A DNA stretch of 42,616 nt, from IMG/VR virus record IMGVR_UViG_3300045988_017468; one strand, 5' to 3'. The position numbers were made by a program, and so were the translations under genes. This stretch comes from a virus. The notes under the pieces are model-generated. The model had not been told where the DNA came from. It worked only from the letters and a program-made list of their open reading frames with translations, and searched no databases. This document shows positions 3,054 through 26,931 of this stretch, piece after piece (position 1 is the stretch's first letter; every line of letters begins with the position of its first letter).

Positions 3054-3073
3054 ATCGCCGTGTCAAATACCAG

Positions 3074-3102
3074 TTGAAAAAGTTTACAAAGTGTGTTACT
3101 AT
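3074..3102 (+). promoter_or_regulatory. Promoter TTGAAA-17-TACTAT with an extended -10 (TGt), candidate repressor-gene promoter
   Basis: Hexamers at 3074..3079 and 3097..3102; TG at 3094..3095. Confidence 0.55.
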
Positions 3103-3103
3103 G

Positions 3104-3115
3104 TAGTTGCAGACA
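3104..3115. promoter_or_regulatory. Candidate operator half TAGTTGNNNACA, repeated at 3208..3219
   Basis: TAGTTGCAGACA lies just downstream of the 3097 -10 box. TAGTTGTCAACA overlaps the -35 of the minus promoter. Only two copies exist. Confidence 0.25.
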
Positions 3116-3188
3116 CATAGTAAAAAAGCTTAGGCGGTACGACCCGCTGGGGCTTTGTGTTTTGTTAACTATTTCAACTGACAAGAGC

Positions 3189-3217
3189 ATTATACAGCTA
3201 GCAGAGTTAGTTGTCAA
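3189..3217 (-). promoter_or_regulatory. Consensus promoter TTGACA-17-TATAAT firing leftward toward cro (candidate early lytic promoter)
   Basis: Reverse complement of 3212..3217 is TTGACA and of 3189..3194 is TATAAT, with an exact 17-bp spacer. Confidence 0.65.
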
Positions 3218-3274
3218 CATTTTGTACTAACTTTACTAACTTTTGTATGGATGCACGAAAAAGGAGCTGCTTTT

Positions 3275-3625
3275 ATGAGCACTTTTTACGACAACTATAT
3301 AAAGCTGTGTGCTGTTCACGACAAATCCCCAACTGCGGTATCAAAAGAAATTGGCCTTTCTAACGCAGCTGCCAGTGGCTGGAAAAACGGCAAAAAGCCT
3401 TCTGCGGTTACAAAGCAAAAGCTTGCCGACTACTTTGGTGTCACGGTCGAAGAGTTGACCGGCGAAGAGCAAAAAGAAAAGCCCAACGCCTTAGATGGCA
3501 TTGAGCTTGAAAAATTGTCACCAGCCCGCCGTGCGCTGCTGGAAGCGCTGGAGGGCATGGATGACGAAAACATTATGAAAATTGTTCGGATTGCTCAGGC
3601 AGTTAAAAAGGAGCTTCCAGAGTGA
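3275..3625 (+). CDS. XRE/CI-like HTH repressor without a peptidase domain
   Basis: Start moved to Met9 (MSTFYDNYIKLC...) 8 nt after AAGGAG. HTH segment PTAVSKEIGLSNAAASGWKNGKKP. Divergent from the cro-like gene. Confidence 0.8.
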   Translation: MSTFYDNYIKLCAVHDKSPTAVSKEIGLSNAAASGWKNGKKPSAVTKQKLADYFGVTVEELTGEEQKEKPNALDGIELEKLSPARRALLEALEGMDDENIMKIVRIAQAVKKELPE

Positions 3626-3942
3626 GTATACATCTTAATAGAAAAGAGCTCAAACTTCTGAAAGCCCTTGATCAGGAATATCCCGGTGGTGTTGAACGGA
3701 CAAAAGAATTGTTTCAAGACGCTACGGCGCTTGAAGAGCTTGGCTTTGCAGATTCCGCATCGGTGAGCTATCGCAAGTCTGCGGTTTGGATCACGGAAAG
3801 CGGCAGGCAGTATTTGCGAGATAGAAAAGCAAACAGGTTCTCGCTCCCGACGAAAGTGGTCGGCGGGATTGTCACCTTGATTTTGATTCCGGTTCTGGTG
3901 AATCTGATTTCAGATTATGTATTACCAATACTTTTCAAATAA
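3622..3942 (+). CDS. C-terminally membrane-anchored protein co-transcribed with the repressor
   Basis: GTG start overlaps the repressor stop (GTGA). C-terminal TM helix VVGGIVTLILIPVLVNLISDYVLPILF. Confidence 0.6.
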   Translation: MSIHLNRKELKLLKALDQEYPGGVERTKELFQDATALEELGFADSASVSYRKSAVWITESGRQYLRDRKANRFSLPTKVVGGIVTLILIPVLVNLISDYVLPILFK

Positions 3943-4077
3943 GAACCACTCAATCGTCCAGACAAAGCGGTAAAAGATGTCCTCAACGAAAAAGCGGCAG
4001 ATTCGATGCTGTTTTTTGGGCTTGTACCAGTTTCCGTTCTCGTCCTGCTTCAAAATGTTCAGTTTACAAAAGAGCAT
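3922..4077 (-). CDS. Small aromatic-rich ORF (51 aa), second gene of a two-ORF cassette
   Basis: ATG 4 nt after GGAGG, translation MLFCKLNILKQDENGNWYKPKKQHRICRFFVEDIFYRFVWTIEWFLFEKYW. Lies in an AT-richer stretch. Its 3' end overlaps the 3622..3942 gene tail-to-tail by 21 nt. Confidence 0.35.
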   Translation of the reverse strand: MLFCKLNILKQDENGNWYKPKKQHRICRFFVEDIFYRFVWTIEWFLFEKYW

Positions 4078-6259: not shown

Positions 6260-6550
6260 ATGAAATGCGTGAGACCATGCTGCAGGAAAGAGATCCCGGA
6301 TGGTGCTTCTTTTTGTCCGTGGTGCGGGAAGAAACAGCCGGAAGCCGCCCCGCAGCAAAGAAAAAAGCGCCGCCGCCCAAAGGGCAGCGGCACAGTGTAC
6401 CCTTGTGTATGGAGGTGTGGATTTTATGAAAAAACGGGTCAACACGGCATTTTGGGTGGAAAAGGAAAAGCGCTGGTGCATCGCGGTTCAGAAGAACGGC
6501 ACCCGCAAGCGGTTTTACAGCAGCACGCCGGGCCGCACCGGCCAGCGTGA
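6260..6550 (+). CDS. Zinc-ribbon ORF overlapping the integrase start; possibly a remnant or recoded N-terminus
   Basis: MKCVRPCCRKEIPDGASFCPWCGKK...RRRPKGSGTVY. The part beyond residue ~47 looks non-protein-like and overlaps the int frame. No SD. Confidence 0.25.
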   Translation: MKCVRPCCRKEIPDGASFCPWCGKKQPEAAPQQRKKRRRPKGSGTVYPCVWRCGFYEKTGQHGILGGKGKALVHRGSEERHPQAVLQQHAGPHRPA

Positions 6551-7562
6551 AGCAAACGCAAAAGCGGATGCATGGCTTGATGATAGCATCCGTGACGGGA
6601 AAAAGAAGGTCAGCGTCCTTTATTCAGAGTGGGTGGAAGAGCTGAAGCTGACTTGCGGGACGTCCTATGTGACACAATGCCAGCGTTACGGAGACTGCTA
6701 CATCCTGCCGACCTGTGGGAACATCCGCATTGACGAGTTAACCGAGGGCGATCTTCAAAAGGCAATTGACGTTTCGTTCCGGAAGCGCTCACAGAAAAAG
6801 AACCAGCGCAAGCCCATCTCAAACCAGCCGTTGAGCCGAAAGACGCTTATGACGATCCGGGCTGCGGAAACCGCCTTTGTCAAGTGGTGCCGAAGAAACA
6901 AGTACACGGCGCTCCACCCCGACCTGTCTATCCCGAAGAATGCCAGGATGGGGAAACGCACGATCTTGCAGCCCACCGCCTTGAAGACCCTGTTCAGCGT
7001 AGACACCCGCACCTACTATGGAAAGCCGGTATTTGATGAATATATCTACGCCTACCGCTTTGCAGTTGCGACCGGCCTACGCCCCGGGGAGCTGATTGGT
7101 CTCTGGTATGGTGACATCAAGGGGAACACGGTCAATCTTCGGCGCAGCATCAACGTGCACCGGGAGCAGACCACCGGAAAGAATGAAAACGCCATCCGCT
7201 CTTTTGACATGGGAAAGGAAGCACGGGATGCCTATGAGTCGCAGGTACAGCTTCTAAAGGCTCAAGGCATACTGCTAAACTACAATACCTCGCTGTTTCA
7301 GATCCCGTCAGAGCATACGCTCTATCGCCGCTGGGAATCGTATCAGGAAGCAAACGGGCTTGAGCCGAAAGTCTCACTTTACGAGCTTCGGCACACTTTT
7401 GTCAGCGTTGAATCAAGCGTCCTGACTGACAGCCAGCTGAAGATGCTTGTAGGTCATAGCAAGAACATGGACACTGCCGGAGTGTATCGGCACGAGCTTG
7501 ACGGTCAGAGGGAAGACCTTGCTGCCGCTACCACCGAGGCATTCAAAAAGGCACAGGCCTGA
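6426..7562 (+). CDS. int: Tyrosine recombinase (phage integrase)
   Basis: Start at Met43 (MKKRVNTAFW...) 8 nt after GGAGGTG. Catalytic-region motifs GLRPGEL, LYELRHTF and VGHSKNMDTAGVYRH. Confidence 0.93.
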   Translation: MKKRVNTAFWVEKEKRWCIAVQKNGTRKRFYSSTPGRTGQREANAKADAWLDDSIRDGKKKVSVLYSEWVEELKLTCGTSYVTQCQRYGDCYILPTCGNIRIDELTEGDLQKAIDVSFRKRSQKKNQRKPISNQPLSRKTLMTIRAAETAFVKWCRRNKYTALHPDLSIPKNARMGKRTILQPTALKTLFSVDTRTYYGKPVFDEYIYAYRFAVATGLRPGELIGLWYGDIKGNTVNLRRSINVHREQTTGKNENAIRSFDMGKEARDAYESQVQLLKAQGILLNYNTSLFQIPSEHTLYRRWESYQEANGLEPKVSLYELRHTFVSVESSVLTDSQLKMLVGHSKNMDTAGVYRHELDGQREDLAAATTEAFKKAQA

Positions 7563-7565
7563 CTC

Positions 7566-7586
7566 TGGTAACATTTTTGGTAACAC
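7566..7586 (+). repeat. 21-bp direct repeat TGGTAACATTTTTGGTAACAC, copy 1 (candidate integrase arm-type sites)
   Basis: Identical to 7775..7795. Each copy contains GGTAACA twice. Confidence 0.85.
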
Positions 7587-7701: not shown

Positions 7702-7725
7702 GTTCGACTCCCATCGCCTCCACCA
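7702..7725 (+). other. attP core candidate: 3' end of a tRNA gene (T-loop to CCA)
   Basis: GTTCGACTCCCATCGCCTCCACCA reads as T-loop TTCGACT, 3' T-stem, 3' acceptor strand, discriminator A and CCA. The upstream sequence is not tRNA-like. Confidence 0.65.
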
Positions 7726-7774: not shown

Positions 7775-7795
7775 TGGTAACATTTTTGGTAACAC
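7775..7795 (+). repeat. 21-bp direct repeat, copy 2
   Basis: Identical to 7566..7586, 209 bp apart, flanking the tRNA-like core. Confidence 0.85.
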
Positions 7796-7821: not shown

Positions 7822-7861
7822 CAAAAACATCCCCGAGGAACCGTCAGGATCCCCGGGGATG
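7822..7861 (-). terminator. Intrinsic terminator ending the minus-strand accessory cluster
   Basis: 8-bp stem CATCCCCG/CGGGGATG, followed on the minus strand by TTTTTGCGTTT. Confidence 0.65.
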
Positions 7862-7916
7862 GTGCTATGTATGGCCGTTTTGGGCAGCGCGGCCACGGTG
7901 GTGATACCGGCGGTGA

Positions 7917-8252
7917 TCACTCAGACAAAGAGACAATCTTCCGCATTACTAGCTCATACTCTTTCGGGTACACCATCTTTATTGCTTTCATGTGCTCGTC
8001 AAGCACCTGCATCAGACCGCCAAATGGCACAGAGCTGGCAGCCGCCACAAAGTCGCTTTGCGGTTCCGCTGCCGTGGAGTACGCCGCCCGGTAATCCGTG
8101 GGTGGAAATGCCTGGGTCTGCGTTTCAGGTGTGTGCGCTTCTTCCAGCTCGTCCCGCACAGTGCAGAGGGCGGCAAGCTTTTCCACGCTCTGCCAGTCCG
8201 TCGAACCGCATTTCAGCTTGTGAATGTGGGTGTTGATCTCGTCAATGTCCAT
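7917..8252 (-). CDS. Hypothetical acidic protein (accessory cluster gene 8)
   Basis: ORF track, 111 aa; AAAGGGGG SD. Confidence 0.55.
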   Translation of the reverse strand: MDIDEINTHIHKLKCGSTDWQSVEKLAALCTVRDELEEAHTPETQTQAFPPTDYRAAYSTAAEPQSDFVAAASSVPFGGLMQVLDEHMKAIKMVYPKEYELVMRKIVSLSE

Positions 8253-8269
8253 GCCTGCCGCCCCCTTTC

Positions 8270-8671
8270 TTATGCGTTGCGCAAGATGTCAGCGGCCCGC
8301 TTGTAGGCGTCACGCTCTGCACCGGTGGCCTCCTGCATCATGTCCTCGATGTCAGAGATCATACGCTCACGGCCATCCGTGCGGGAGTAGTGCCCGCGCA
8401 CATAGTGACGGCCTCGGTTGGCATAGCTGTTGCCCCGGTTGTAACCGTTTCCGGCATCATGGCCGAAAGTCCCGCGCATGTCAGCTTCCCACTCGCCCGC
8501 ACGGCTGTACTCGCCGCCCTCGCAGTAGTCCTCGATGCGGTGGATGTCCAGAATGATGTCCACGATCTCGCCGATCATCTCAACATCACCCGGGGATCGG
8601 TTCTTTTTGTCGGTCAGCTCCATGAGCTCTTCGCACATCTCATCCTTCAGATGATTCAGTTTATCCAGCAT
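8270..8671 (-). CDS. Hypothetical protein with a central Arg/Gly/Tyr/Asn-rich low-complexity segment (cluster gene 7)
   Basis: ORF track, 133 aa; AAAGGAGA SD. Segment GNGYNRGNSYANRGRHYVRGHYSR lies between acidic helices. Confidence 0.6.
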   Translation of the reverse strand: MLDKLNHLKDEMCEELMELTDKKNRSPGDVEMIGEIVDIILDIHRIEDYCEGGEYSRAGEWEADMRGTFGHDAGNGYNRGNSYANRGRHYVRGHYSRTDGRERMISDIEDMMQEATGAERDAYKRAADILRNA

Positions 8672-8687
8672 GACTTTATCTCCTTTC

Positions 8688-9110
8688 TTATGCTACCCGC
8701 TCAACAATCAAATTGCCGTTTGCAATGCTGACTGCCTGCGTACTGGTGTTCTTAACCGCCACGGTCACGCAGCAGCCGCGCGGCACCTCGATGAACGCGG
8801 CCACGAAAACGTTGAAGAAATTTTCGACTGCCGCCGGGGTGACAATGGCTGTCGCACTGGTCAGCGACTCACCGCCGACAGCCAGCGCCACGGAAATGGG
8901 TCCAACAGTGCCGCCGGTGGGAATGGCGATATTGCCGCCAAAGCTTACCTTGAAGCGCGCTTTGCATTGATTGGTCAGACCCCGCAGGGTCACAAGGCCG
9001 CTGCCCTCACGGTGCATGATGCAGGCAGGGGCTTTCACCGCGGTCTCAGTCAGGGGAAGGTTTTCACCCGCCGCCACGATGACGGTGTTGGAGTTGCTAA
9101 ATTCAGCCAT
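8688..9110 (-). CDS. Beta-rich protein resembling the BclA C-terminal (C1q/TNF-like) domain, without a collagen stalk (cluster gene 6)
   Basis: Start at Met13 (MAEFSNSNTV...) 9 nt after AAGGAGG. Alternating beta pattern, a CC pair, and an ending ...SIANGNLIVERVA that recalls the BclA ending ...SASIIIEKVA. Confidence 0.5.
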   Translation of the reverse strand: MAEFSNSNTVIVAAGENLPLTETAVKAPACIMHREGSGLVTLRGLTNQCKARFKVSFGGNIAIPTGGTVGPISVALAVGGESLTSATAIVTPAAVENFFNVFVAAFIEVPRGCCVTVAVKNTSTQAVSIANGNLIVERVA

Positions 9111-9324
9111 TATCCGAAACCTCCTTTTCTGCACAAACAGGCGCATTTACCGCATAAACGGTTTTTAAGATATCCATCCAAGAATTGGATGGATCTGCTT
9201 TTTCCGTATCAAGCAGGGTTTTCAAAATGAAAACATAAGTGTTCAATTCCATCATGCTCATTTTGTTCTTATCCATGCTGTACAGATAATCTACAAACTG
9301 CTGTTTCAGCTCTGCTACGGTCAT
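9103..9324 (-). CDS. Hypothetical helical protein (cluster gene 5)
   Basis: ORF track, 73 aa; AAAGGAG SD. Stop overlaps the next start (ATGGCTGA). Confidence 0.55.
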   Translation of the reverse strand: MTVAELKQQFVDYLYSMDKNKMSMMELNTYVFILKTLLDTEKADPSNSWMDILKTVYAVNAPVCAEKEVSDNG

Positions 9325-9342
9325 TCAAATACTCCTTTCATA

Positions 9343-9371
9343 GAAAAACGCCGGGACTTTTGCCCCGGCGC
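9343..9371 (-). terminator. Intrinsic terminator inside the accessory cluster
   Basis: Stem CGCCGGG/CCCGGCG, followed on the minus strand by TTTTTCT. Confidence 0.6.
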
Positions 9372-9437
9372 TCTGGTTTGCAAAATCAGCTCAGGGGCTG
9401 AACATTTTCCATTTTGGAAAAAGTTGCCGTGATTCGG

Positions 9438-10277
9438 TTATGCGCAGTTGCCGCAGCCGGTCCCACAGCCATAGTAAATGGCGTTGGGGTTGGGCACCTG
9501 ATAGGCAGGCACGGGAGCTTTCTGCTGCAGAGTCCCGATGATCTGGTTGGTCTGCGCGTTCATCGCGGTGGTCAGGAACGCGCTCTGGCGATCCTGAGAA
9601 GCAGCCCGGCGCAGCTCGTTGTTCTCGCTCTGCAGGGTGGCGATCTTATCGTTGGTCAGGAAGTCGAGCACCGCGCGGGTGTTGCTGTTCTGATTCTCGA
9701 TGATGTCCCGGGTGTTGTTGTTCATGGCGTTCTGCGTTGCGCAGAAGCCCTGCTGCATCTGGTTCCGGGTGTCGCACTCCTGAGTGGCCAGATTGTAGTT
9801 AACGCCCTGGATCGCGGTCTGGGTCTTGCAGCAGCAGTCTGCCAGCTGTGTAGCCAGAGCATTCTGACCCTGCATCAGCGCAACGTTGGTGCCGTTGAAG
9901 CCCTGCTGCATGGCGTTGGTGACACCGTTCAGGCCCTGCTGCACGCCGTTGAAGCCCTGAAGCATCCCGGTGTTCATGGCATAGAAGCCATCACACAGGC
10001 CGCTTTCAAGCCCGTTCAGCTTGTTCATGACGCTCTGGTTGTCGAAGCCACGCTGCAGGTCTGCCTGTGTGACAGCGCTGGTCATATAAGGCGAAGCGCC
10101 GCCCATGCCGCCGCCCCAGCCAAAGCCGCCCATGCCGCCCCAGCCGAACATGCCGAAGATCAGAAAGAGGACGATCCAGCCCATCCAGTCGCCGCCCCAG
10201 CCATTGAGGCCGTTGCTGTAGCCGTTGGCGGGCTGTACCGGCATAGTCAGAACCGTGCTATCAGAAGAAAGAGACAT
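9438..10277 (-). CDS. Membrane-anchored Gly/Trp-, Gln/Asn- and Cys-rich protein (cluster gene 4)
   Basis: ORF track, 279 aa; AAAGGAG SD. TM helix flanked by GWGG repeats (GWGGDWMGWIVLFLIFGMFGWGGMGGFGWGGGMGG). QQGFNG-type repeats, a CCC motif and the C-terminus YYGCGTGCGNCA. Confidence 0.7.
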   Translation of the reverse strand: MSLSSDSTVLTMPVQPANGYSNGLNGWGGDWMGWIVLFLIFGMFGWGGMGGFGWGGGMGGASPYMTSAVTQADLQRGFDNQSVMNKLNGLESGLCDGFYAMNTGMLQGFNGVQQGLNGVTNAMQQGFNGTNVALMQGQNALATQLADCCCKTQTAIQGVNYNLATQECDTRNQMQQGFCATQNAMNNNTRDIIENQNSNTRAVLDFLTNDKIATLQSENNELRRAASQDRQSAFLTTAMNAQTNQIIGTLQQKAPVPAYQVPNPNAIYYGCGTGCGNCA

Positions 10278-10310
10278 AGTTTTACTCCTTTACGTTAGAT
10301 TTTGAAATTT

Positions 10311-10337
10311 ATTCTAAATGCGGCCGCATTTTAGAAT
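10311..10337. repeat. Near-perfect 27-bp palindrome centred on GCGGCCGC
   Basis: ATTCTAAATGCGG/CCGCATTTTAGAAT with one bulged T. Lies between cluster genes 3 and 4 and overlaps the stop at 10331. Confidence 0.6.
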
Positions 10338-10555
10338 CCAAACATATTTTTCATGCCGTTGAGCATCGGCGCGATCTGCTGCGCCCGCTGCTGAATGGCG
10401 TTGAGCTGCTGCTGTGAAAGCTGGCCGGAGGTGAGCATCTGGTTTATCATCTCCTGCGGGTTCTTTCCCTGCATCTGGCCCATAAACTGCTGGAACTGCC
10501 CGCCAATAGGGTTCTGAGCCTGTCGGCCCATCGAATTAAACAAGCTGCTGCCCAT
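10331..10555 (-). CDS. Small Gln-rich protein (cluster gene 3)
   Basis: ORF track, 74 aa; AAGGAGGG SD. About a quarter of the residues are Gln. Confidence 0.6.
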   Translation of the reverse strand: MGSSLFNSMGRQAQNPIGGQFQQFMGQMQGKNPQEMINQMLTSGQLSQQQLNAIQQRAQQIAPMLNGMKNMFGF

Positions 10556-10558
10556 CGT

Positions 10559-11002
10559 TTAGCCCTCCTTTTCCGGCTCTGGTGCTTCTTGCTTCTCCAA
10601 CGCCGCCAGCTTTGCCGCCAACTCGTCGAACTCCTTGCGGGTGACATACTCCCCGCCTGCGGCTTGCGTGGCTGCAATCGACGCTTTGGGGACGCTGGTG
10701 CGTTCCTTGTAGTCGTAGATTCGGAGCGGAAACGGCCTGCCGTCCTGCCCAACTTCTTTGATGTAAAAGGTATCGGAATCAGCATCCAGTAAAAGCACCC
10801 GGCTCCCGTTGGCGACCAGATAGCCCCGGGCCGCTGCTTCGCCTTGCACCCAGATAAAGCCGCTGTCAGTCGGTGCGGCCTGCCCCTGCATTGTCGGCAT
10901 CATGACGGGCTGGGGTTGGTACTGTGCTGCCCTGAGCTGTTCAAGCTGCCCCTGCGGCTGTTGCGGGTAAAACACTTGCGGGTATCCGTTATAGATCGGC
11001 AT
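10559..11002 (-). CDS. Protein with a Pro/Gln/Tyr-rich N-terminus, beta-rich core and Glu-rich tail (cluster gene 2)
   Basis: Start at Met16 (MPIYNGYPQVFYPQQPQ...) 6 nt after AAGGAGG. Core motif FIWVQGEAAARGYLVANGSRVLLLDADSDTFYIKEV. Confidence 0.6.
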   Translation of the reverse strand: MPIYNGYPQVFYPQQPQGQLEQLRAAQYQPQPVMMPTMQGQAAPTDSGFIWVQGEAAARGYLVANGSRVLLLDADSDTFYIKEVGQDGRPFPLRIYDYKERTSVPKASIAATQAAGGEYVTRKEFDELAAKLAALEKQEAPEPEKEG

Positions 11003-11381
11003 CGTTTTCCTCCTTGTACCAGTAGTAGATCGGGCATTCTGCGCCACTGTCCCAGCTGTCCCACCACGCGCCGTCGATGACGGTCAGAACGTGGCCGGAG
11101 CAGCCCAGCACATACACGCCGTGCGGGTACTCCCGGGCAAAATCTGCCACGGTGTAACAGGTGGTGCAGTCCGCCTCCACCATGCCGCGCTTGTAACCCT
11201 GCTTTTGGAGGTATGCGCCCCATGTGCGGTTGGCGCTGGGCATATCGCCGACGATAAAGCCAGTAAGCGCAAGCCCAAGGTAAGCTTTCTCCCAGTCTTG
11301 GCCCGTTGCGGCTGCCACGGCCCGCACTACGCAGTCCCCTACGCTGCTCCCGCGCGGGTTCGGGTTAAACTTGTGCCACAT
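10989..11381 (-). CDS. Putative papain-fold Cys/His peptidase-like protein (cluster gene 1)
   Basis: Start at Met17 (MWHKFNPNPRGSSVGDCVVRA...) 6 nt after AGGGAGGGG. Candidate catalytic Cys in GDC and His in CSGHVLTVIDG. The function is inferred. Confidence 0.45.
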   Translation of the reverse strand: MWHKFNPNPRGSSVGDCVVRAVAAATGQDWEKAYLGLALTGFIVGDMPSANRTWGAYLQKQGYKRGMVEADCTTCYTVADFAREYPHGVYVLGCSGHVLTVIDGAWWDSWDSGAECPIYYWYKEENDADL

Positions 11382-11451: not shown

Positions 11452-11498
11452 AGGACAAAAAGAAAAGCGCCCACACGGCACAGGACTGTGTAGGCGCT
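11452..11498 (-). terminator. Minus-strand intrinsic terminator upstream of the accessory cluster (insulator-like)
   Basis: Stem AGCGCC-ACAC / GTGT-GGCGCT, followed on the minus strand by TTTTCTTTTTG. Confidence 0.55.
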
Positions 11499-11540
11499 CA
11501 ATCATTTGCACTCAATGAGTACAATATTTTCAAAAAGTGC

Positions 11541-11569
11541 TTGACGTTTACACTCATTGGGTGTATAAT
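11541..11569 (+). promoter_or_regulatory. Near-consensus promoter TTGACG-17-TATAAT of the plus-strand moron cassette
   Basis: Hexamers at 11541..11546 and 11564..11569 with an exact 17-bp spacer. Confidence 0.7.
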
Positions 11570-11614
11570 AAAGATAGTGAAAGATACAAACACACAACAT
11601 GGAGGTGCAAAATT

Positions 11615-11794
11615 ATGAGAAACGCTATTGAAATCGCCGCTGATATCCGCAATACTGCAGCGTGGGATCTCGAGCTGTGCGAAGAACTGTGCGAGGCGGC
11701 CGGAATGGAAGACGAGTGGAACACGGCAGACGGCGATAACTTTGAGGCTGTCGTTGAAGCCGCCGCTGAAAAACTGGGCGTTGAGATCTACTAA
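11615..11794 (+). CDS. Small highly acidic protein (59 aa; 16 Asp/Glu against 3 Arg/Lys)
   Basis: Start at Met27 (MRNAIEIAADIRNTAAWDLELCEELCEAAGMEDEWNTADGDNFEAVVEAAAEKLGVEIY) 9 nt after GGAGG. Confidence 0.65.
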   Translation: MRNAIEIAADIRNTAAWDLELCEELCEAAGMEDEWNTADGDNFEAVVEAAAEKLGVEIY

Positions 11795-11795
11795 A

Positions 11796-11842
11796 TAAAA
11801 AATCCCCCGCCCGATGCTTGCCACACCGAACGGGGGATTTTG
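11796..11842. terminator. Bidirectional intrinsic terminator
   Basis: Stem ATCCCCCG/CGGGGGAT with A-run and T-run flanks and a 21-nt loop. Confidence 0.6.
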
Positions 11843-11848
11843 TGAAAG

Positions 11849-11867
11849 ACACCTCACACGGAGGTGT
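11849..11867. promoter_or_regulatory. Inverted repeat ACACCTC-N5-GAGGTGT, candidate operator for the downstream HTH protein
   Basis: Perfect 7-bp arms located 38 bp upstream of the 11905 start. Confidence 0.35.
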
Positions 11868-11904
11868 GCATTTATCCTATCACACGAAAGGAAGGAAGTC
11901 AATC

Positions 11905-12222
11905 ATGTATACCAAAGCAGAGCTTTTTTCAATGGCCGCAGAGCAGCCGAAGGAAATCTTTGTCAACAACATCACTCTGAGCGTACCAGACGATGCTGAC
12001 AGCTGCCTTAATCTGGATGCTGAGAAGGAAAAGCTGTCCTCCATCTGGGATCTGGCGCACTTGTCTATGCGGGAGCTGGTCTCACGCACTGGCCTGTCTC
12101 AGACCGCTTTTGCAAAGCGGACGGGTATCCCGCTTCGCACGGTGCAGAACTGGTGTGTCGGCACCCGCGACTGCCCGGCATACGTCCGCTTCCTGCTGGC
12201 CGAGCACTATGGGCTGATCTGA
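11905..12222 (+). CDS. HTH DNA-binding protein (XRE-like, C-terminal HTH)
   Basis: Start at Met30 (MYTKAELF...) behind AAGGAAGGAAG. HTH segment MRELVSRTGLSQTAFAKRTGIPLRTVQNWCVG. Confidence 0.7.
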   Translation: MYTKAELFSMAAEQPKEIFVNNITLSVPDDADSCLNLDAEKEKLSSIWDLAHLSMRELVSRTGLSQTAFAKRTGIPLRTVQNWCVGTRDCPAYVRFLLAEHYGLI

Positions 12223-12235
12223 GGGGGATTCCGGT

Positions 12236-13186
12236 ATGGCATCAAAAGACTTGACGGGTCATACTTTTGGGAGCTGGATCGTGATAGGTGCATCCGAAAA
12301 GAGCGGCTATGTAAAATGCCGCTGCAAGTGCGGCACAGAAAGAGATGTCCTTCGAGAATCCCTGACCCGAGGGGCAAGCAAGTCCTGTGGGTGCGTTCAT
12401 ACCAGGAGCGAGGCCCAGCTCAAGATGGACGAGCGGAGAAAAAAAGAGGGAGACCTTACTGGAAAGCGGTTTGGGCGTTGGACTGTCTTGCATCGTGCGG
12501 AAAAAGATGGGTATTTTACATGCCAGTGTGAGTGTGGCACTATAAAAGATGTGTATCGGCATAGCCTTATGTCCGGAATGAGCACAGGCTGTCAGCATTG
12601 CGCTTTCTCGCATAGCGATGCAATGAAGAGCGCAGCAGCCCAAAAATCCGCCAAAGCAAAAAAATCCGCTATCGAAAAGTACGAAGGGAAGACTGTGAGC
12701 GGCTGGAAGATCATCGAAATCCTACCCCCTCGAAAGCCAGACGTATCCATGTGGTGCAAAGCAGTCTGCCCGCAGTGCGGAAAAATCGTTGAAGTCAGAC
12801 TTTCAAACATAACACGCACTAACCCTATACTTCGGTGCTCCGACTGTGCCCGTGACATGAAAGACAAGGTCGATGTCATCCACAGCGTTACCCAGGTGGA
12901 TGGCTCTTCCCTCTCCTCTGTGAAATCGCGGATGGGCGGAAAGGTCAACCGGAACTCCAAGACCGGAGTAAACGGCGTTGTAAAAAGGCCGAACGGGCGG
13001 TACTTTGCCTATATCAACTTCAAAAGGAAACAAATTTATCTCGGCCTGTACGAAAGCCTTGACGATGCGATTGCCGCCCGGAAAAAGGCGGAAGCGGCGA
13101 TTTATGGCGAGTATCTTGACCAGCATGAAGGTTGGGAAGAAGAGCTTGCAAGCCGTCTCAAAGAACTCAAAAAAGAGAAAAAATAG
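12236..13186 (+). CDS. Protein with three Cys4 zinc-ribbon-like modules and a C-terminal AP2-type DNA-binding domain
   Basis: Three repeats of L(T)G..FG.W.V........Y..C.C.CG...V....L..G...(S/T)CG(C). C-terminal GVNGVVKRPNGRYFAYINFKRKQIYLGLYESLDDAIAARKKAE is AP2-like. No HNH motif seen. Confidence 0.7.
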   Translation: MASKDLTGHTFGSWIVIGASEKSGYVKCRCKCGTERDVLRESLTRGASKSCGCVHTRSEAQLKMDERRKKEGDLTGKRFGRWTVLHRAEKDGYFTCQCECGTIKDVYRHSLMSGMSTGCQHCAFSHSDAMKSAAAQKSAKAKKSAIEKYEGKTVSGWKIIEILPPRKPDVSMWCKAVCPQCGKIVEVRLSNITRTNPILRCSDCARDMKDKVDVIHSVTQVDGSSLSSVKSRMGGKVNRNSKTGVNGVVKRPNGRYFAYINFKRKQIYLGLYESLDDAIAARKKAEAAIYGEYLDQHEGWEEELASRLKELKKEKK

Positions 13187-13227
13187 AAAAACCCCCGATG
13201 CTCCAAACGGAACACCGGGGGTTTGCT
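13187..13227. terminator. Bidirectional intrinsic terminator between the convergent cassette and the late operon
   Basis: Stem ACCCCCG/CGGGGGT with A-run and T-run flanks and an 18-nt loop. Confidence 0.65.
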
Positions 13228-13458
13228 TTACTCAAAAACTTTTGCAATGCTTTTCAGCCGATAGCCTATTGCCGTCCGGCTGTAATGCGTCTGTGCTGCA
13301 ATGTCCGGCAATGGAAGCCGCTCAACGTACCGCAAAAGAGCTATCTTCCGGTCTACCCTCCCAAGCGGTGCGGTTTTGATGGCGGCGGTCATCTGTTGTC
13401 GGTCAAGTCCTTGCAGGCACAGTGGCAGCACCACACGAGCCGCCGCCACAGGCAGCAC
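13228..13458 (-). CDS. Sigma-70 region-4-like HTH ORF, possibly the 3' part of a frameshifted gene
   Basis: RVDRKIALLRYVERLPLPDIAAQTHYSRTAIGYRLKSIAKVF. No SD in front of any candidate start. Confidence 0.4.
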   Translation of the reverse strand: MLPVAAARVVLPLCLQGLDRQQMTAAIKTAPLGRVDRKIALLRYVERLPLPDIAAQTHYSRTAIGYRLKSIAKVFE

Positions 13459-13585
13459 CGAGCCAGAAAGGCTGCGGCAACTCTCCGGCGTTGCGCACCA
13501 TTACGGGGACGTTACCGAAATGGTCGATTTTGCCGCATCTCTTGATCTCACAAAATCGTTTCTGTTCGTATGTAGTGCTTGCCAT
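13403..13585 (-). CDS. Small ORF with a strong SD, possibly the 5' part of the same HTH gene
   Basis: ATG 5 nt after GGAGG. It overlaps the 13228..13458 frame, which is +1 relative to it and open from about 13500. Confidence 0.4.
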   Translation of the reverse strand: MASTTYEQKRFCEIKRCGKIDHFGNVPVMVRNAGELPQPFWLGAACGGGSCGAATVPART

Positions 13586-13595
13586 GATATCCTCC

Positions 13596-13934
13596 TTACT
13601 GCTTTTCCAGCGCCGCTTTCATGCGGTCAAAGAAAAACTGGATAATGGTGCCGATGGTCTCATCGGTGATGGCCCACGAGATGAATTTGCCCCACTTGCT
13701 GGCGCTGAGAGCCGTGCGGAGCATCTGCGCCACCCACGCCTTGCGCTCTGCGCCTCTCTTGGTGCCCTGAATCTCATGTTCTGCCTGCTCGATCAGGTCG
13801 AGCACAGTGCCCTTGACAGCCGCACCATAGCCCAGCCGGATGCAGCCCAGTGCATAGAACGCAAGGCCGCCCAGCATGAGCACGAGGGCCACAGGGGCGG
13901 GAAGTGCGGTCAAAAGGTTACGAATCGCTTCCAT
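13596..13934 (-). CDS. Putative holin (LL-H-family-like, N-terminal TM)
   Basis: ORF track, 112 aa; AAAGGAG SD. TM segment PAPVALVLMLGGLAFYALGCI. Sits in the lysis cassette. Confidence 0.6.
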   Translation of the reverse strand: MEAIRNLLTALPAPVALVLMLGGLAFYALGCIRLGYGAAVKGTVLDLIEQAEHEIQGTKRGAERKAWVAQMLRTALSASKWGKFISWAITDETIGTIIQFFFDRMKAALEKQ

Positions 13935-14307
13935 GATTGGTAACTCCTTTCAAAAGATAGTTGTCGATGTCGGTGCGGCTCTTCTGCATCCCCTCGCGAT
14001 TGTTGCCGGACAGCTGCGCATCCAGAAGGTTGCGCACCCCGTCGAGGGTCAGACGGCTCACCTCGTCAATTTCTTCAAAGCGGCGCAGATCTCGGGCAAG
14101 GGCCTGCGTGTGTTGGAGCTGGCCCTGCTCTAAGGTGCCGATGCGCTTGTCCATCTCATCCAGCCGCTTGTTCTGCACGTTGTCCGGTTCCTGCGCCTTT
14201 TTGATGTACTTGTGAATGATTTCCAGCACCTTGTCAATGGTGATGGCTGCAGCACACAGGCTACCCAGGATGCCAAGCACCCACAGCAAAGCTTCTTTTT
14301 CGGTCAT
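13918..14307 (-). CDS. Membrane-anchored coiled-coil protein of the lysis cassette (holin or holin-associated)
   Basis: ORF track, 129 aa. N-terminal TM LLWVLGILGSLCAAAITI. ATGA overlap with the lysin stop. Confidence 0.55.
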   Translation of the reverse strand: MTEKEALLWVLGILGSLCAAAITIDKVLEIIHKYIKKAQEPDNVQNKRLDEMDKRIGTLEQGQLQHTQALARDLRRFEEIDEVSRLTLDGVRNLLDAQLSGNNREGMQKSRTDIDNYLLKGVTNHGSDS

Positions 14308-15101
14308 TTGTCCTCCCGGAGACGGGTCAGACCCTTCTTGCGGATGATACGGGAGTAGTTGATCTCTGTCACGTTGAGGTCAACATTGCCGGAGATGCCA
14401 GGCACGCTGCCTTTGCTGGTGTGCTGGTGGGCATTGTACTTGAAGTCCACCTTCGGGGTCTTGCCGGTGTAGTCAGCAAGCCACACGTCCCACCGGGAGG
14501 ATAGCCTGGCCATATCCAGTTCGTATTTGTAGCCGGTATAGGTGTAGAGCTGGGCGTAAAAGCCCATCTTTTCCACCTGTTCCAGCGCGTAGGCGGTGAG
14601 GTTGGTGAGGTCGAGGGTGCTCATGGGTTTGAGTTTGTTTTCCTCCACGTCCACCGCGAGGGGCATGGTAAGCTTCTTGCCGTAGACCGCCTGCCGCACA
14701 AGGGCAAGCTCTGCATCGGCCATCGCCTCGCTGGTGGCGTAGGTGTAGTAGTAGACACCCACGTCCAGCCCAGCCGCTTTGGCGTTGCGGTAGTTCGCTT
14801 CAAAGGTGGGGTCGATGTACAGGCCGTCTGCTCGCTTGGAGAGCTTGTGGTTAGTGCTTACGGTCTTGAGCATGGCTCCCTTGTAGCCCGCTGCTGCCAC
14901 CTGTGCCCAGTCGATGGTGCCCTGATACCGGCTCACGTCAATGTACCGGTAGGGCGGTTCACCTGCCCACCCGGTCACGGTGTCCACAGTGGGCACGTCC
15001 GGTGCAGGGGCAGGCTCTTCCTTGTCGGCGCTGTCACCGGCAGCGTGGGAGAGCGCAGAAAAGATATCCCGCAGGAAGTCAAGCATCACTTTCCACCTCA
15101 T
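14304..15101 (-). CDS. Endolysin, glycoside hydrolase family 25 muramidase
   Basis: Signature YIDVSRYQGTIDWAQVAAAGYKGAMLK. The start is uncertain; ATGs at 15110, 15101 and 15086 are all possible. Confidence 0.9.
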   Translation of the reverse strand: MRWKVMLDFLRDIFSALSHAAGDSADKEEPAPAPDVPTVDTVTGWAGEPPYRYIDVSRYQGTIDWAQVAAAGYKGAMLKTVSTNHKLSKRADGLYIDPTFEANYRNAKAAGLDVGVYYYTYATSEAMADAELALVRQAVYGKKLTMPLAVDVEENKLKPMSTLDLTNLTAYALEQVEKMGFYAQLYTYTGYKYELDMARLSSRWDVWLADYTGKTPKVDFKYNAHQHTSKGSVPGISGNVDLNVTEINYSRIIRKKGLTRLREDK

Positions 15102-15222
15102 AAAATCCATCCTCCGTCAGCTTTTTCATCACGGCATCCTTGTACCGGTCAGGCACGTTGTCGATGGTAAAAGCGCCGTCAAAGCGGTGCAGCTTGATTT
15201 GGGTCACATAGAACAAAACCAT
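15079..15222 (-). CDS. Small ORF (47 aa) upstream of the endolysin gene
   Basis: Not in the ORF track. ATG 5 nt after AAGGAGG, translation MVLFYVTQIKLHRFDGAFTIDNVPDRYKDAVMKKLTEDGFYEVESDA. Confidence 0.45.
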   Translation of the reverse strand: MVLFYVTQIKLHRFDGAFTIDNVPDRYKDAVMKKLTEDGFYEVESDA

Positions 15223-15620: not shown

Positions 15621-16109
15621 TTATGCCACTCTGCGCCAGATGTACACACAGTATGCCGGGGGCTGGACGGTAGTGGAAGCGCCGTAGATTGATGACACAT
15701 TTGAAGCGTCAAATGTGATTCTGTCCGGACTTATAAGTTCGCCTTGAAAAGAAAGTGGAACGTCGTTACCTCCTGCGCCTGCGGGTATGAGATTGAACGC
15801 TTCGTATCCAGCTGTAACAGAACCGCCAGTACTACTCGAACCAGATGGTCTTGAAATCAATTCACCAGTAATATTCGGCAGTCCAGCCTCTACCGTTGTA
15901 CCGGCTGGATGCGTGTCGCTTGCACCCCAGATAGTGCAATCCTCAATGCGTTCCCATGTGCCGCCGTAAAGCTCTGCCGGGCTGGTAGCGTTTTCGCTGA
16001 TGTACAGGCTGCCCACGGGGTGGTCTCGCTCGACTACCGCCGCAAGGACTTGCTGATAGATAGCATAGGCATCAGGGCCAATGCCGTTTTTGAGTTCTCC
16101 TAGTGCCAT
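15621..16109 (-). CDS. Stand-alone tail-collar-type receptor-binding module, paralog of the fibre C-terminus
   Basis: Shares GASDTHPAGTTVEAGLPNITG and SIYGAS.TVQPPAY with the 446-aa fibre. AAAGGAGA SD. Confidence 0.75.
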   Translation of the reverse strand: MALGELKNGIGPDAYAIYQQVLAAVVERDHPVGSLYISENATSPAELYGGTWERIEDCTIWGASDTHPAGTTVEAGLPNITGELISRPSGSSSTGGSVTAGYEAFNLIPAGAGGNDVPLSFQGELISPDRITFDASNVSSIYGASTTVQPPAYCVYIWRRVA

Positions 16110-16120
16110 TGTTTCTCCTT

Positions 16121-17461
16121 TCAGTCAGTACGAAGCCAAGTGCAAGTAAAGTATGCCGGGGGCTGGACGGTATCGGATGCGCCGTAAATGGAGTTGGAAC
16201 GAGAAGCGTCAAATCCGAAGGGCGCACCACCGGAGGGAATACCGACATTTGTTGAGATGCTGTTATAGCTGTCCTCTCCAGTAGTTGTGCCGTTTTCGTA
16301 GAAAGCTCCTGTTATTCTAGTATGTGAATCGTTAGTAAAGCCATCTCGAAGTGCGGCAACAAACTTGCCCGTAATATTTGGCAGTCCCGCCTCTACCGTT
16401 GTGCCAGCTGGGTGCGTGTCGCTTGCACCCATTAACACCCTATCTTGCGCAATCTTTTTCCACGTGCCGCCGCCAAATGTCACAGCCGGGTTTTCCGGGC
16501 TGATGGTCTGATAGATACTACCCACAGGATGTGCCGCAAGCAGGAAGTTGGAGTAGATGGAGCCGTCACCATAGAACTGACCACCATACTTGATGGGATA
16601 CCACCGGGCGGAAATTTCCGCAGTCGGAATGTTGTGTGCACGGATACGGATAGCTCCGGTTCGAGTTTCTGGGTTTACAAGCATAGCTTTACCGGCTACG
16701 TCTGCGCTTGCAGGGTCGATGCTGACAGATACCACAGTCGTGGACGTAACATCTGCTGTGATATCAATGTAATGCGGGTACTCTGCAACTTCTGTGTCTG
16801 TTTGCCACCCCGTAATTGGAATGGAAAGATCATGTGGAACGACGGAGTCTGCTTTGCCTGCCAGAGCATCACCGGTAGCCTTTGCGTCGGCAGGAGCGTT
16901 TTCGGTCTTGAGGGTCTTGTCTGTACCGGCCCGCGTGCCTGCCAGCGCGGCACTTGCAGCGGCTTCCTCAGCGCTCTTCTGGGCAGCGGATTCGCTGGCA
17001 GAGGAATTGGTTTCGGAGGTGGATGCAGCAGAAGCGCTGTCGGCAGCGGCAGCGGCAGAGGTGGCAGCAGCTTTTTTGCTTGCGTTGGCATCCGATGCAG
17101 AACCAGCCGCAGCAGATGCGGCGGTTTCTGCCGTGGCGGTGGAATTTGCCACCTCCTGCAAAGCGCCGGTCTTAGCGTTGCCGATGTCAGTCAGTGCAGC
17201 GTCTTTTGTCTGGGTGATGGCCGTGGTGGCCGTAGTCTGGGCTTGCTGGACAGCGGCCACAGAGTCCGCTTTCTGCTGGTCGATGTTTGCCACAGCATCG
17301 GATGCTTTTTTCTCGCTGGCTGCCGCCGCATCTGCCTTCTGGGTGGCCGTGGCAGCGAACTGCTCCACATACTCGCCCATCTGGGCGATGTCTTCCCGGA
17401 CTTCCACACCTTTTTTTGCGGTACGGATGCCCGAGATAACTTCCGGAAAAGTCTTTGTCAT
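16121..17461 (-). CDS. Tail fibre / receptor-binding protein (Ala-rich coiled stalk plus C-terminal tail-collar-like domain)
   Basis: ORF track, 446 aa. Ala/Ser/Thr-rich N-terminal half and a C-terminal HPVGSIY...GGGTWKKI collar-like motif. Confidence 0.85.
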   Translation of the reverse strand: MTKTFPEVISGIRTAKKGVEVREDIAQMGEYVEQFAATATQKADAAAASEKKASDAVANIDQQKADSVAAVQQAQTTATTAITQTKDAALTDIGNAKTGALQEVANSTATAETAASAAAGSASDANASKKAAATSAAAAADSASAASTSETNSSASESAAQKSAEEAAASAALAGTRAGTDKTLKTENAPADAKATGDALAGKADSVVPHDLSIPITGWQTDTEVAEYPHYIDITADVTSTTVVSVSIDPASADVAGKAMLVNPETRTGAIRIRAHNIPTAEISARWYPIKYGGQFYGDGSIYSNFLLAAHPVGSIYQTISPENPAVTFGGGTWKKIAQDRVLMGASDTHPAGTTVEAGLPNITGKFVAALRDGFTNDSHTRITGAFYENGTTTGEDSYNSISTNVGIPSGGAPFGFDASRSNSIYGASDTVQPPAYFTCTWLRTD

Positions 17462-18197: not shown

Positions 18198-18209
18198 CTG
18201 TCCTTCACC

Positions 18210-22838: not shown

Positions 22839-22852
22839 CAATTCAAAAAGTT

Positions 22853-26857: not shown

Positions 26858-26931
26858 TGGTGCCGCTTGCAGGAATCGAACCCGCGTCCTCTGGTTACAA
26901 ATCAGCAGCTCTACCATTGAGCTAAAACGGC
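26858..26931 (-). tRNA. tRNA with anticodon loop UUUGUAA, read as Thr(UGU); the anticodon stem is non-canonical
   Basis: Hand fold: acceptor GCCGTTT/AAGCGGC, D arm GCTC-AATGGTA-GAGC, T arm GCGGG-TTCGATT-CCTGC, encoded CCA. Anticodon-stem pairs 27-43 and 31-39 are mismatched. Confidence 0.6.

Follow-up and report, generated by a model that had tools for sequence, protein, structure and literature searches.

The 42,616-nt virus sequence IMGVR_UViG_3300045988_017468 from IMG/VR (hereafter the window) carries eight co-oriented minus-strand open reading frames (ORFs), here called g1 to g8, between positions 7917 and 11381. Our results indicate that this cassette is one copy of a widespread gut-phage module and not a private oddity of this phage: its genes recur together, in the same order and orientation, in about 165 loci of Clostridia phages, and the block moves between unrelated phage backbones. 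A sequence-only reading, made without database searches, had described an eight-gene accessory cluster in a moron slot and had assigned it no function. We tentatively favour a model, to which we give a probability of about 0.3, in which the cassette encodes an accessory fibre or coat-like assembly of the lytic cycle, with g4 as its stalk or matrix, g6 as a cap or adaptor, g2 and g3 as partners, g7 and g8 as accessories and g1 acting in maturation.

A conserved cassette that moves between gut phages

The genes and signals of the window cassette, each gene with its Shine-Dalgarno (SD) sequence, are as follows.

10989-11381, minus strand: g1, 130 aa, SD GGGAGGGG
10559-11002, minus strand: g2, 147 aa, SD AAGGAGGAA; its start overlaps the end of g1
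10331-10555, minus strand: g3, 74 aa, SD AAGGAGGG
9438-10277, minus strand: g4, 279 aa, SD AAAGGAG
9103-9324, minus strand: g5, 73 aa, SD AAAGGAG
8688-9110, minus strand: g6, 140 aa, SD AAAGGAGG; overlaps the end of g5
8270-8671, minus strand: g7, 133 aa, SD AAAGGAG
7917-8252, minus strand: g8, 111 aa, SD AAAGGGGG
11467-11481, minus strand: hairpin and T-run upstream of g1, closing transcripts that arrive from upstream
9340-9374, minus strand: intrinsic-terminator-like hairpin between g4 and g5/g6, with a 13-bp GC-rich stem followed by UUUUU
7822-7849, minus strand: terminator after g8, with its hairpin at 7831-7849
10316-10331: perfect 16-nt palindrome AAATGCGGCCGCATTT, overlapping the g3 stop codon within the 53-nt gap between g3 and g4

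Each SD lies 5-10 nt ahead of its start codon. Genes overlap at g1/g2 and g5/g6 and are separated by only 3-17 nt at g2/g3, g6/g7 and g7/g8. The hairpin at 9340-9374 is unusually stable (z = -3.3), and none of 200 shuffled sequences folded equally well. The minus strand of the window showed no sigma70-like promoter ahead of g1. The palindrome AAATGCGGCCGCATTT could be an operator-like site. Thus the inventory given by the sequence-only reading holds, namely eight minus-strand ORFs with strong SDs, upstream, internal and post-g8 terminators, and no strong sigma70 promoter upstream; a composition count likewise bears out a g3 rich in Gln and Asn, a g4 rich in Gly, in Gln and Asn and in Cys, an Arg/Gly/Tyr-rich g7 and an acidic g8.

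We surveyed synteny by running per-gene hidden Markov models (HMMs) against all ORFs of 165 loci, made up of 79 IMG/VR sequences, 6 GenBank phages and 80 genome contigs. The recurring order is an optional sigma-70-region-4-like regulator gene, an optional g1, then g2, g3, g4, an optional g5 or another small gene, g6, g7 and an optional g8. Cassettes with g4 identities as low as about 30% still share this order and orientation. The numbers of ORFs found in these loci are given below, together with the identity to the window protein among 39 near-identical cassettes used for a comparison of alleles.

g1: 122 ORFs; 81-95% identity
g2: 158 ORFs; 91-99% identity
g3: 150 ORFs; 91-100% identity
g4: 166 ORFs; 94-100% identity
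g5: 20 ORFs
g6: 126 ORFs, and a further 33 loci with an unrelated Cys-rich beta protein of about 130 aa in the g6 slot; 77-99% identity
g7: 135 ORFs; 58-100% identity
g8: 55 ORFs, always last in the cassette; 59-99% identity

The conserved unit is therefore not the set of eight genes that had been proposed. It is g2-g3-g4, a hairpin, a beta-sandwich gene and g7, with g1 and g8 as frequent additions and g5 as a lineage-specific one. As judged from the alleles, the core is conserved and the distal genes are mosaic. Median spacings across the loci are an 8-nt overlap for g2/g3, 53 nt for g3-g4, 110 nt from g4 to the beta-sandwich gene and 12 nt for g6-g7. The spacer between g4 and g6 almost always holds a GC-rich hairpin and a T-run just before the next SD, with stems that differ between lineages, and 60 of 116 unique spacers qualify under a strict rule for hairpin and T-tail.

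The g4 family serves as the hallmark of the module. It comprises at least 7951 clusters at 90% identity (E ≤ 1e-3), and at least 598 IMG/VR stretches match it. A scan of one genome per species returned 133 matches, nearly all in gut Clostridia, among them Lachnospiraceae, Oscillospiraceae, Ruminococcus, Acutalibacteraceae, Blautia and others.

The family also extends beyond Clostridia. Over its C-terminal two-thirds, g4 has matches among the ORFs of crAss-like phages and of a Bacteroides uniformis phage that is in culture, with g4 HMM E-values of 1.6e-31 for cr109_1 gp64 and 6.6e-40 for gene 36 of C3_41T2LP. These homologues keep the hydrophobic segment flanked by Gly and Trp, the CCC and PxPAY motifs and the Cys tail, and other annotators have labelled them 'viral fiber/spike'. 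The Bacteroidota type is present in at least 593 IMG/VR stretches, and about 78 of 82 Bacteroidota loci hold a parallel g4-headed cassette: the g4 homologue, a Cys-containing beta protein, a beta and coiled-coil protein, an optional Arg/Asp/Tyr-rich peptide, a helical protein and a PolyVal-type metallopeptidase. Its loci are:

L167, 2919-6778: crAss-like phage cr109_1
L168, 4611-7856: Bacteroides phage C3_41T2LP
L169-L248: further Bacteroidota cassettes

Its beta protein, B35, is weakly related to the Cys-rich protein that replaces g6 (hhalign probability 42.6%, E 2.6e-4). No homology to g2, g7, g8 or g3 was found by hhalign for the partners B34, B32 and B33. A 'GIDPN'-like motif is common to g3 and the N-terminus of Bacteroidota g4, and the idea that this N-terminus is a fused g3 was rejected at an hhalign probability of 0.2%. 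The cassette genes of cr109_1 contain in-frame stop codons under the standard code (recoding).

Two viruses assigned by their depositors to Methanomassiliicoccales also encode members of the g4 family (phrog_16490; HMM E 4e-19 and 5e-16). Both genes adjoin a tail protein gene, and that of vir215 adjoins a reverse transcriptase gene as well; neither protein has the Pro/Cys tail, and neither gene has a beta-sandwich neighbour.

L249, 4632-5555: g4 homologue of vir335
L250, 4641-5522: g4 homologue of vir215

These data bear on the simplest alternative, that eight unrelated small ORFs merely lie side by side. The dispensability of g5 and g8 in many phages would fit it. We nevertheless regard it as extremely improbable, given that synteny holds in about 165 Clostridia-phage loci at low identity and differing insertion sites, that some 80 Bacteroidota-phage loci have a parallel g4-led cassette, that the genes show translational coupling and that the internal hairpin is conserved.

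The cassette is always co-oriented with the late genes and occupies several sites:

After lysis genes and before integrase and the phage attachment site (attP): this phage and Dulem virus 33
After lysis genes: Butyrivibrio phage Ceridwen and bajarodcaudo virus 5
Head module, between portal or minor head protein and scaffold or major capsid protein: L050-type phages and bajarodcaudo virus 2
Directly after the receptor-binding protein: Dulem virus 36
Next to the integrase or in the replication region: Dulem virus 39 and L068

The cassette is thus a portable module that moves as a block between unrelated phage backbones, with at least four genome positions. For several lineages with the head-module site, the neighbouring minor head protein is SPP1-gp7-like.

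The position near attP had suggested a moron slot and, possibly, lysogenic conversion. That site is specific to this lineage; elsewhere the cassette lies in the head module, after the receptor-binding protein gene or by the integrase. It is also carried by a 30.7-kb phage with no annotated integrase, where it sits in the head module, makes up about 11% of the genome and is accompanied by a separate GH25 endolysin, and by Butyrivibrio phage Ceridwen, which has no integrase or excisionase, for which only lytic growth has been seen and which its authors judge to be virulent. Because it is present in these two phages, the cassette is not tied to lysogeny. A moron expressed from the prophage to alter the surface or fitness of the host is therefore unlikely in our view, even though much about the cassette resembles one. 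Like phage morons it is mobile, self-contained, bracketed by terminators and, here, the last block before attP, so that the junction between prophage and host falls next to the genes for transfer-messenger RNA (tmRNA) and smpB; its alleles are mosaic and its spread between phages is moron-like. Morons usually comprise one or two genes, whereas the cassette has five to eight co-adapted ones, which also lie within head and tail gene strings on the late strand and include no recognisable host-directed effector; no sigma70-type promoter was found upstream of them in the window. In addition, no signal peptide was seen in the sequences of the soluble and partner proteins of the cassette, so these products could not reach the surface of a living lysogen.

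Some lineages carry their own regulator. A small gene of the sigma-70-region-4/GerE helix-turn-helix (HTH) type, recognised by Pfam, lies upstream of the cassette and is followed by a hairpin and T-run and then by the motif [AG]TG-N1-3-AAAAT[AT]TA, about 20 nt ahead of the g2 SD. The motif was found in 29 of 70 unique upstream regions with the regulator and in 0 of 78 without it, against a background expectation of 0.005 per region. This association suggests a dedicated pair of regulator and promoter. The window lineage has neither the regulator nor the motif. The loci concerned are:

L040-L074, L073, L102, L130, L137, L162 and L164, upstream of g2; for example L050, 7157-7174

Genes resembling HNH homing endonucleases (phrog_374, with a repeated LTGxxFGRLTV motif) interrupt or flank the cassette at differing points, and from these insertions it looks like a hotspot for homing-endonuclease invasion.

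L022, 9635-10459: homing-endonuclease-like insertion
L068, 9520-10356: homing-endonuclease-like insertion
L080, 12929-13723: homing-endonuclease-like insertion
L081, 8280-8831, minus strand: homing-endonuclease-like insertion
Window, 12236-13186, plus strand: paralogue, within a plus-strand block upstream of the cassette

Features of the cassette proteins

None of the eight proteins matched Pfam or NCBIfam above noise. Six of them belong to PHROG families, all labelled 'unknown function', and g8 has no family match in Pfam, NCBIfam or PHROG.

g1: phrog_3754 (E 9.5e-30)
g2: phrog_21718 (E 1.8e-24)
g3: phrog_22984 (E 1.8e-19)
g4: phrog_16490 (E 3.4e-61)
g6: phrog_20016 (E 4.4e-61)
g7: phrog_28802 (E 5e-6 for the window protein; 1.2e-63 for its L050 homologue)

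Pfam, run on a diverse set of 64 cassette members, recognised nothing but the small regulator next to the cassette (Sigma70_r4/GerE HTH), and sequence and profile searches of the PDB with g1, g2, g6 and the Cys-rich alternative to g6 gave no match. Wherever members of the 90%-identity clusters have a name, it is 'hypothetical protein'. A full-text literature search found no paper naming these PHROG families, and searches of the literature on phage exosporium or BclA proteins, Lachnospiraceae virion proteomes and crAss-like lysis modules turned up nothing bearing on the cassette. The view that the genes have no counterpart in the standard phage modules thus stands, and homology searches assigned none of them to a known, unrelated function.

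The same searches weigh on the possibility of a module for superinfection exclusion, anti-phage defence or counter-defence, which we consider very unlikely. PADLOC gave no match at E ≤ 0.1 for any of the eight proteins; Pfam and NCBIfam scans of the window proteins, and Pfam on the 64 members, found no nuclease, NTPase, sensor or toxin domain; the low-complexity, Cys-rich composition is unlike that of known defence systems; and the module is conserved across host phyla. The features that would suit such a module are the pairing of a membrane protein, g4, with variable partners, the fast diversification of g6-g8 and insertion at variable-region hotspots near homing endonucleases.

The hallmark protein g4 contains 13% Gly, 21% Gln plus Asn and 9 Cys. 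It begins with a short conserved peptide containing TMPVxPA, followed by a hydrophobic helix at about residues 29-44 between Gly/Trp loops (the best 19-residue Kyte-Doolittle window scores 1.69 at residue 35), a segment rich in Gly, Asn and Gln that contains an invariant CCC (148-150), a long helix of low confidence at about 170-250, a conserved Pro-rich PxPAY and a Cys tail of the CxC type. The protein thus matches its earlier description as membrane-anchored, with Gly/Trp, Gln/Asn and Cys-rich parts. AlphaFold2, given 40 homologues, returned a mean predicted local distance difference test (pLDDT) score of 39.8, too low for a fold search, and only the helix at 29-44 reached about 69. Either disorder or a fold adopted only upon oligomerisation would fit this result.

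The fold of g6 was predicted with much greater confidence. With 45 diverse homologues AlphaFold2 gave an all-beta model of 11 strands (pLDDT 96.2, predicted TM-score 0.88), whose Foldseek matches in the PDB include the C-terminal domains of F-BclA and BclA and the proteins BxpB/ExsFA/ExsF (TM-score 0.67-0.76, E about 1e-6 to 1e-5, 8-12% identity). TNF-family ligands and the knobs of phage fibres and spikes also match (whole list, TM-score 0.6-0.76, E 1e-6 to 1e-4). In BFVD, uncultured phages supply the best matches, stand-alone proteins of about 135 aa with TM-scores up to 0.89 that in some cases bear the name 'BclA protein'; fibritin, tail-fibre and collagen-C1q proteins come next. The modelled structure therefore confirms g6 as a predicted stand-alone jelly-roll of the TNF/C1q/BclA-C/ExsF type, as had been proposed from its letters. 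Membership of BclA_C (PF18573) or C1q was not seen at the sequence level, with no Pfam or NCBIfam match at E ≤ 1 and no sequence or profile match in the PDB. No cassette protein contains Gly-X-Y repeats, and g6 consists entirely of the jelly-roll. Its family forms 615 clusters at 50% identity. We tried the Cys-rich alternative as a homologue of g6 and obtained an hhalign probability of 0.9%; the two are therefore taken to be non-homologous replacements.

Thirty-three homologues of g1, 25-56% identical to the window protein, share invariant Asp16, Cys17, Arg20, Leu58, His97 and Asp108. Relatives are present in Bacillus phages (some annotated as 'putative peptidase'), in Geobacillus phage GBK2 and in Lak megaphages. 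The order of Cys, His and Asp fits a putative papain-type enzyme. The C39 peptidase domain of ComA, a papain-like clan CA enzyme, has Cys17, His96 and Asp112; g1 has its three residues in the matching order at nearly equal spacing and is of comparable size (about 130 aa). Unlike ComA C39, however, g1 has no Pfam match, and a profile search of the PDB found nothing. The candidate assignment as a C39 double-glycine peptidase was rejected, as hhalign against ComA C39 gave a probability of 0.1%. Of the earlier suggestion of a papain-like Cys/His protein, the Cys17/His97/Asp108 set thus survives and a clan CA (C39) profile match does not. g1 is a frequent but not universal member, absent from about one-third of cassettes. 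Small ORFs of about 105 aa resembling HExxH metallopeptidases follow g7 in two Clostridia-phage lineages without g1:

L068, 11038-11358: HExxH metallopeptidase-like ORF
L082, 9234-9551: HExxH metallopeptidase-like ORF

HExxH genes after the cassette are present in L068, in Dulem virus 39 and in the Bacteroidota cassette, and the HExxH gene may be a non-orthologous replacement of the g1 enzyme.

The remaining proteins are less distinctive. An alignment with 10 distant homologues divides g2 into a Pro/Gln/Tyr-rich N-terminus, a short beta-rich core and a helical acidic tail; it is a core member, and the median overlap of 8 nt points to translational coupling with g3, a Gln/Met/Asn-rich core protein with 32% Gln plus Asn. 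The optional, lineage-specific g5 is absent from many near-identical cassettes. The core member g7, which has divergent alleles, has an Arg/Gly/Tyr-rich centre flanked by acidic helical parts at both ends, with 11% each of Arg, Gly, Asp and Glu and a net charge of -10, and g8, frequent but optional, has a net charge of -8. Two loci carry a larger helical protein of 259-332 aa in the g7 slot; it looks loosely ferritin-like, a pattern with no Pfam match behind it.

L083, 8338-9117: larger helical protein in the g7 slot
L085, 8317-9315: larger helical protein in the g7 slot

The contrast between g4 and g6 also bears on whether g2, g3 and g4 travel inside the capsid and enter the recipient along with its DNA cargo, g4 then inserting into the recipient membrane and a peptidase processing the proteins. 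A g4 predicted to be largely unstructured would suit passage through the tail channel, peptidase genes (g1 or the PolyVal type) accompany the cassette, and in several lineages its neighbours are the SPP1-gp7-like minor head protein on one side and the scaffold gene on the other. Conversely, g6 is probably a trimer, too compact and well folded to fit through the tail, and the head module is just one of at least four positions. We consider such delivery quite unlikely.

Models for the function of the cassette

Our favoured model of a fibre or coat-like assembly starts from the layout of the operon. A partial terminator after g4 would give g2, g3 and g4 a higher dose than g6-g8, an arrangement that we infer to be typical of operons whose first product is the major subunit, and g4 would accordingly be the abundant main subunit. 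Its N-terminal hydrophobic Gly/Trp segment would be held in the cell membrane or in a hydrophobic socket, and the protein would extend through the Gln/Asn-rich segment and long helix to the Pro-rich peptide and the Cys cluster, which could serve in cross-linking or metal binding. The Gln-rich g2 and g3 would co-assemble with g4 or chaperone it, g7 and g8 would be exchangeable accessory parts, and g1 would process a component, a task that the small HExxH metallopeptidase-like gene may take on in other lineages. The partner proteins carry no signal peptides, so they would be assembled in the infected cell's cytoplasm, the way virions and spore coats are, and the product would become exposed at lysis on virions or cell remains. 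We propose a lytic or late role over prophage expression on the basis of late-strand orientation, head, receptor-binding-protein and lysis-gene neighbourhoods, and the presence of the cassette in Ceridwen and in the 30.7-kb phage.

The role of g6 is modelled on the Bacillus exosporium. There, BclA and F-Anchor have Pro-rich exosporium-leader peptides, which the clefts of ExsF/BxpB trimers clamp (PMC12357932). By analogy, a g6 trimer would cap or anchor the g4 stalk by clamping a Pro-rich g4 peptide, for which the two conserved motifs TMPVxPA and PxPAY are candidates. Several observations are consistent with such a cap. In the PDB, g6 best matches TNF-like trimers with a distal or anchoring place in the exosporium, and phage fibre knobs. 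The joint absence of the Pro/Cys tail and the beta-sandwich partner from the archaea-assigned viruses may be counted in its favour, and the variability of g6, g7 and g8 among cassettes with g4 94-100% identical is what one would expect of distal parts that are exposed or interact. The invariant Cys, His and Asp of g1, together with the HExxH genes, would fit a protease associated with assembly. As to location, a hydrophobic anchor and a cassette that passes between unrelated virion types speak for the membrane; fibre-like features, neighbours in the head and tail modules and distal genes that vary speak for a structure associated with the virion. The self-assembling surface or envelope-associated structure that the sequence-only reading had suggested from composition is thus a possible candidate.

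Comparison with known systems gives this model partial precedents. Like g6, BxpB/ExsF is a stand-alone protein of about 140 aa without collagen stalk or signal peptide; the cassette proteins resemble exosporium and coat proteins in being Cys-rich or Gln-rich with presumed cytoplasmic assembly, and g4 has conserved Pro-rich peptides comparable to those that ExsF clamps. g6 is, however, just 8-16% identical to the exosporium proteins with which it shares its fold (BclA, F-BclA and BxpB/ExsFA/ExsF) and has no Pfam BclA_C match, the cassette has neither the collagen repeat nor the exosporium leader of BclA-type glycoproteins, and this phage-encoded set includes g2, g3, g4 and g7, which have no exosporium counterparts. 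Pfam families of spore coat and exosporium proteins, examples of which are CotY/ExsY, GerQ, Tgl, DUF3992 Ena and DUF4183 F-ENA, matched neither the window proteins nor the 64 diverse members, which included the Cys-rich alternative to g6. A spore-specific function was considered and judged unlikely, as the carrier hosts include bacteria, Faecalibacterium-like and Butyrivibrio ones among them, that are not known to sporulate.

Accessory fibres and decorations, such as T4 fibritin and whiskers, phi29 head fibres, SPP1 gp12, PRD1 P5 and reovirus sigma1, share the late context of the cassette, and their helical segmented stalk with a TNF-like or beta-sandwich distal domain resembles the proposed combination of g4 and g6. 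Reovirus sigma1 also has a hydrophobic N-terminal anchor, as does g4. They differ in that stalk and knob are separate polypeptides in the cassette, that g4 has a membrane-grade hydrophobic helix with Gly/Trp loops and that the cassette hops between unrelated virion types.

Several points weigh against a fibre or coat-like assembly. An add-on that served virions as unrelated as those of siphoviruses and crAss-like phages would depend on a docking site common to all of them, and a strongly hydrophobic anchor is unusual for a tailed-phage fibre. The g4 'stalk' is drawn from composition alone, with residues 45-169 lacking predicted structure, and docking of g6 to a g4 peptide is an analogy. About one-third of cassettes have no g1, and the separate regulator and linked motif of many cassettes suggest separate control and not membership of a structural operon. 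The frequent holin and transmembrane-coiled-coil neighbours would fit a membrane or lysis role equally well. Assembly, virion association and expression timing are all deduced from sequence, and we grade the mechanistic model as weak.

The neighbours just mentioned raise the alternative of a lysis or egress accessory, in which g4 is a single-pass membrane protein that tunes or completes envelope disruption together with its cassette partners. We regard this as possible but doubtful. The cassette directly follows holin or endolysin genes in this lineage, Dulem virus 33, Ceridwen and bajarodcaudo virus 5; the g4 homologue of cr109_1 lies three genes downstream of a holin, after a transmembrane-coiled-coil gene called 'lysis regulatory protein-like' and gp65; and the transmembrane-coiled-coil gene beside the endolysin in the window has a homologue that moves with the head-module cassette. 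With its short N-terminus, one hydrophobic helix and large helical C-terminal part with Cys, g4 also resembles T4 holin T and the i-spanin Rz. Unlike these, it has no sequence or PHROG relation to lysis proteins, and no known lysis family appears among the PHROG matches of the eight proteins. Every complete carrier examined has separate endolysin and holin-like genes, and some cassettes lie in head modules or replication regions, well away from the lysis genes. The g4 family spans monoderm, diderm and archaea-assigned hosts, which makes an envelope-specific, spanin-like mechanism unlikely. We also know of no precedent in lysis systems for a TNF-like trimer with Gln-rich proteins.

Returning to the fibre or coat-like assembly, its boldest form would make the phrog_16490 cassette an undescribed virus-encoded assembly of Clostridia and Bacteroidota gut viruses, and possibly of viruses of methanogenic archaea: a cross-linked, exosporium-like fibre or 'nap', built in the cytoplasm and exposed by lysis. 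This proposal is a speculative one, and we hold it less probable than not by a wide measure. If true, such a nap would give virions or the remains of lysed cells adhesion or persistence in the gut. More generally, we rate the cassette as a kind of system that has not yet been described, linked to known ones only by the fold of g6. Because five to eight genes stay intact while hopping between backbones, the block must confer a strong, portable benefit in the gut, for which a new virion or cell-surface structure, a lysis or egress device and an exclusion system are candidates. Its hallmark gene crosses host phyla, and identifying the benefit would annotate a sizeable part of gut-virome dark matter at once. 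Cultured carriers, namely Butyrivibrio phage Ceridwen and Bacteroides phage C3_41T2LP, make the cassette experimentally tractable.

Integration site and remaining genes of the window

The window is a temperate siphovirus, with the following features outside the cassette.

30315-31598, minus strand: terminase (PHROG/Pfam)
28930-30318, minus strand: portal (PHROG/Pfam)
27899-28933, minus strand: minor head or morphogenesis protein (PHROG/Pfam)
25297-26190, minus strand: major capsid protein (PHROG/Pfam)
20226-22841, minus strand: tape measure protein (PHROG/Pfam)
15621-20222, minus strand: tail and baseplate proteins (PHROG/Pfam)
14304-15110, minus strand: GH25 endolysin (PHROG/Pfam)
13918-14307 and 13596-13934, minus strand: two small membrane proteins after the endolysin
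11537-13943, plus strand: short block including an HTH protein
12236-13186, plus strand: HNH homing-endonuclease-like gene (phrog_374) inside that block
6300-7562, plus strand: tyrosine integrase
7702-7725: attP core, 24 nt, TGGTGGAGGCGATGGGAGTCGAAC in minus-strand reading, identical to the 3' end of host tmRNA
7566-7585 and 7775-7794: exact 20-nt arm-type repeats TGTTACCAAAAATGTTACCA flanking the attP core, with 0 expected by chance

The attP core was placed from four integrated copies on metagenome scaffolds. Downstream of g8 these copies run into the 3' end of the tmRNA gene, with smpB adjoining, and their alignment to the window shows identity through TGGTGGAGGCGATGGGAGTCGAAC and divergence exactly after it (for example, in the copy at L251, 12553-12901). 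Hence ssrA is the integration target of the phage, with the cassette forming the final block ahead of attP. The core lies about 190 nt from the cassette and outside it. Together with the integrase and the arm repeats, this result upholds the earlier statement that the cluster is close to attP.

The membrane protein at 13918-14307 (minus strand), which adjoins the GH25 endolysin, has an N-terminal transmembrane segment, a coiled coil and the motif LDxQxSGNN...NYL, and it had no PHROG or Pfam match. A homologue travels with the head-module cassettes, between g1 and the regulator gene (L050, 5849-6154). The label 'XhlA-like' was tried for this gene and dropped, given no Pfam XhlA match and a reversed topology.

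The window also encodes two tRNAs:

26858-26931, minus strand: tRNA-Thr(TGT), between the minor head protein and scaffold genes
33861-33936, minus strand: tRNA-Trp(CCA), upstream of the packaging genes

GC content is low at 32001-33000 (42%) and 3001-4000 (44%) relative to a window average of about 55%. Finally, 48 nt around the terminator after g8 (7824-7871) are 89.6% identical to the end of Faecalibacterium phage FP_Lugh. This stretch is the only nucleotide link of the window to any cultured phage, and it hints at a Faecalibacterium-like host.

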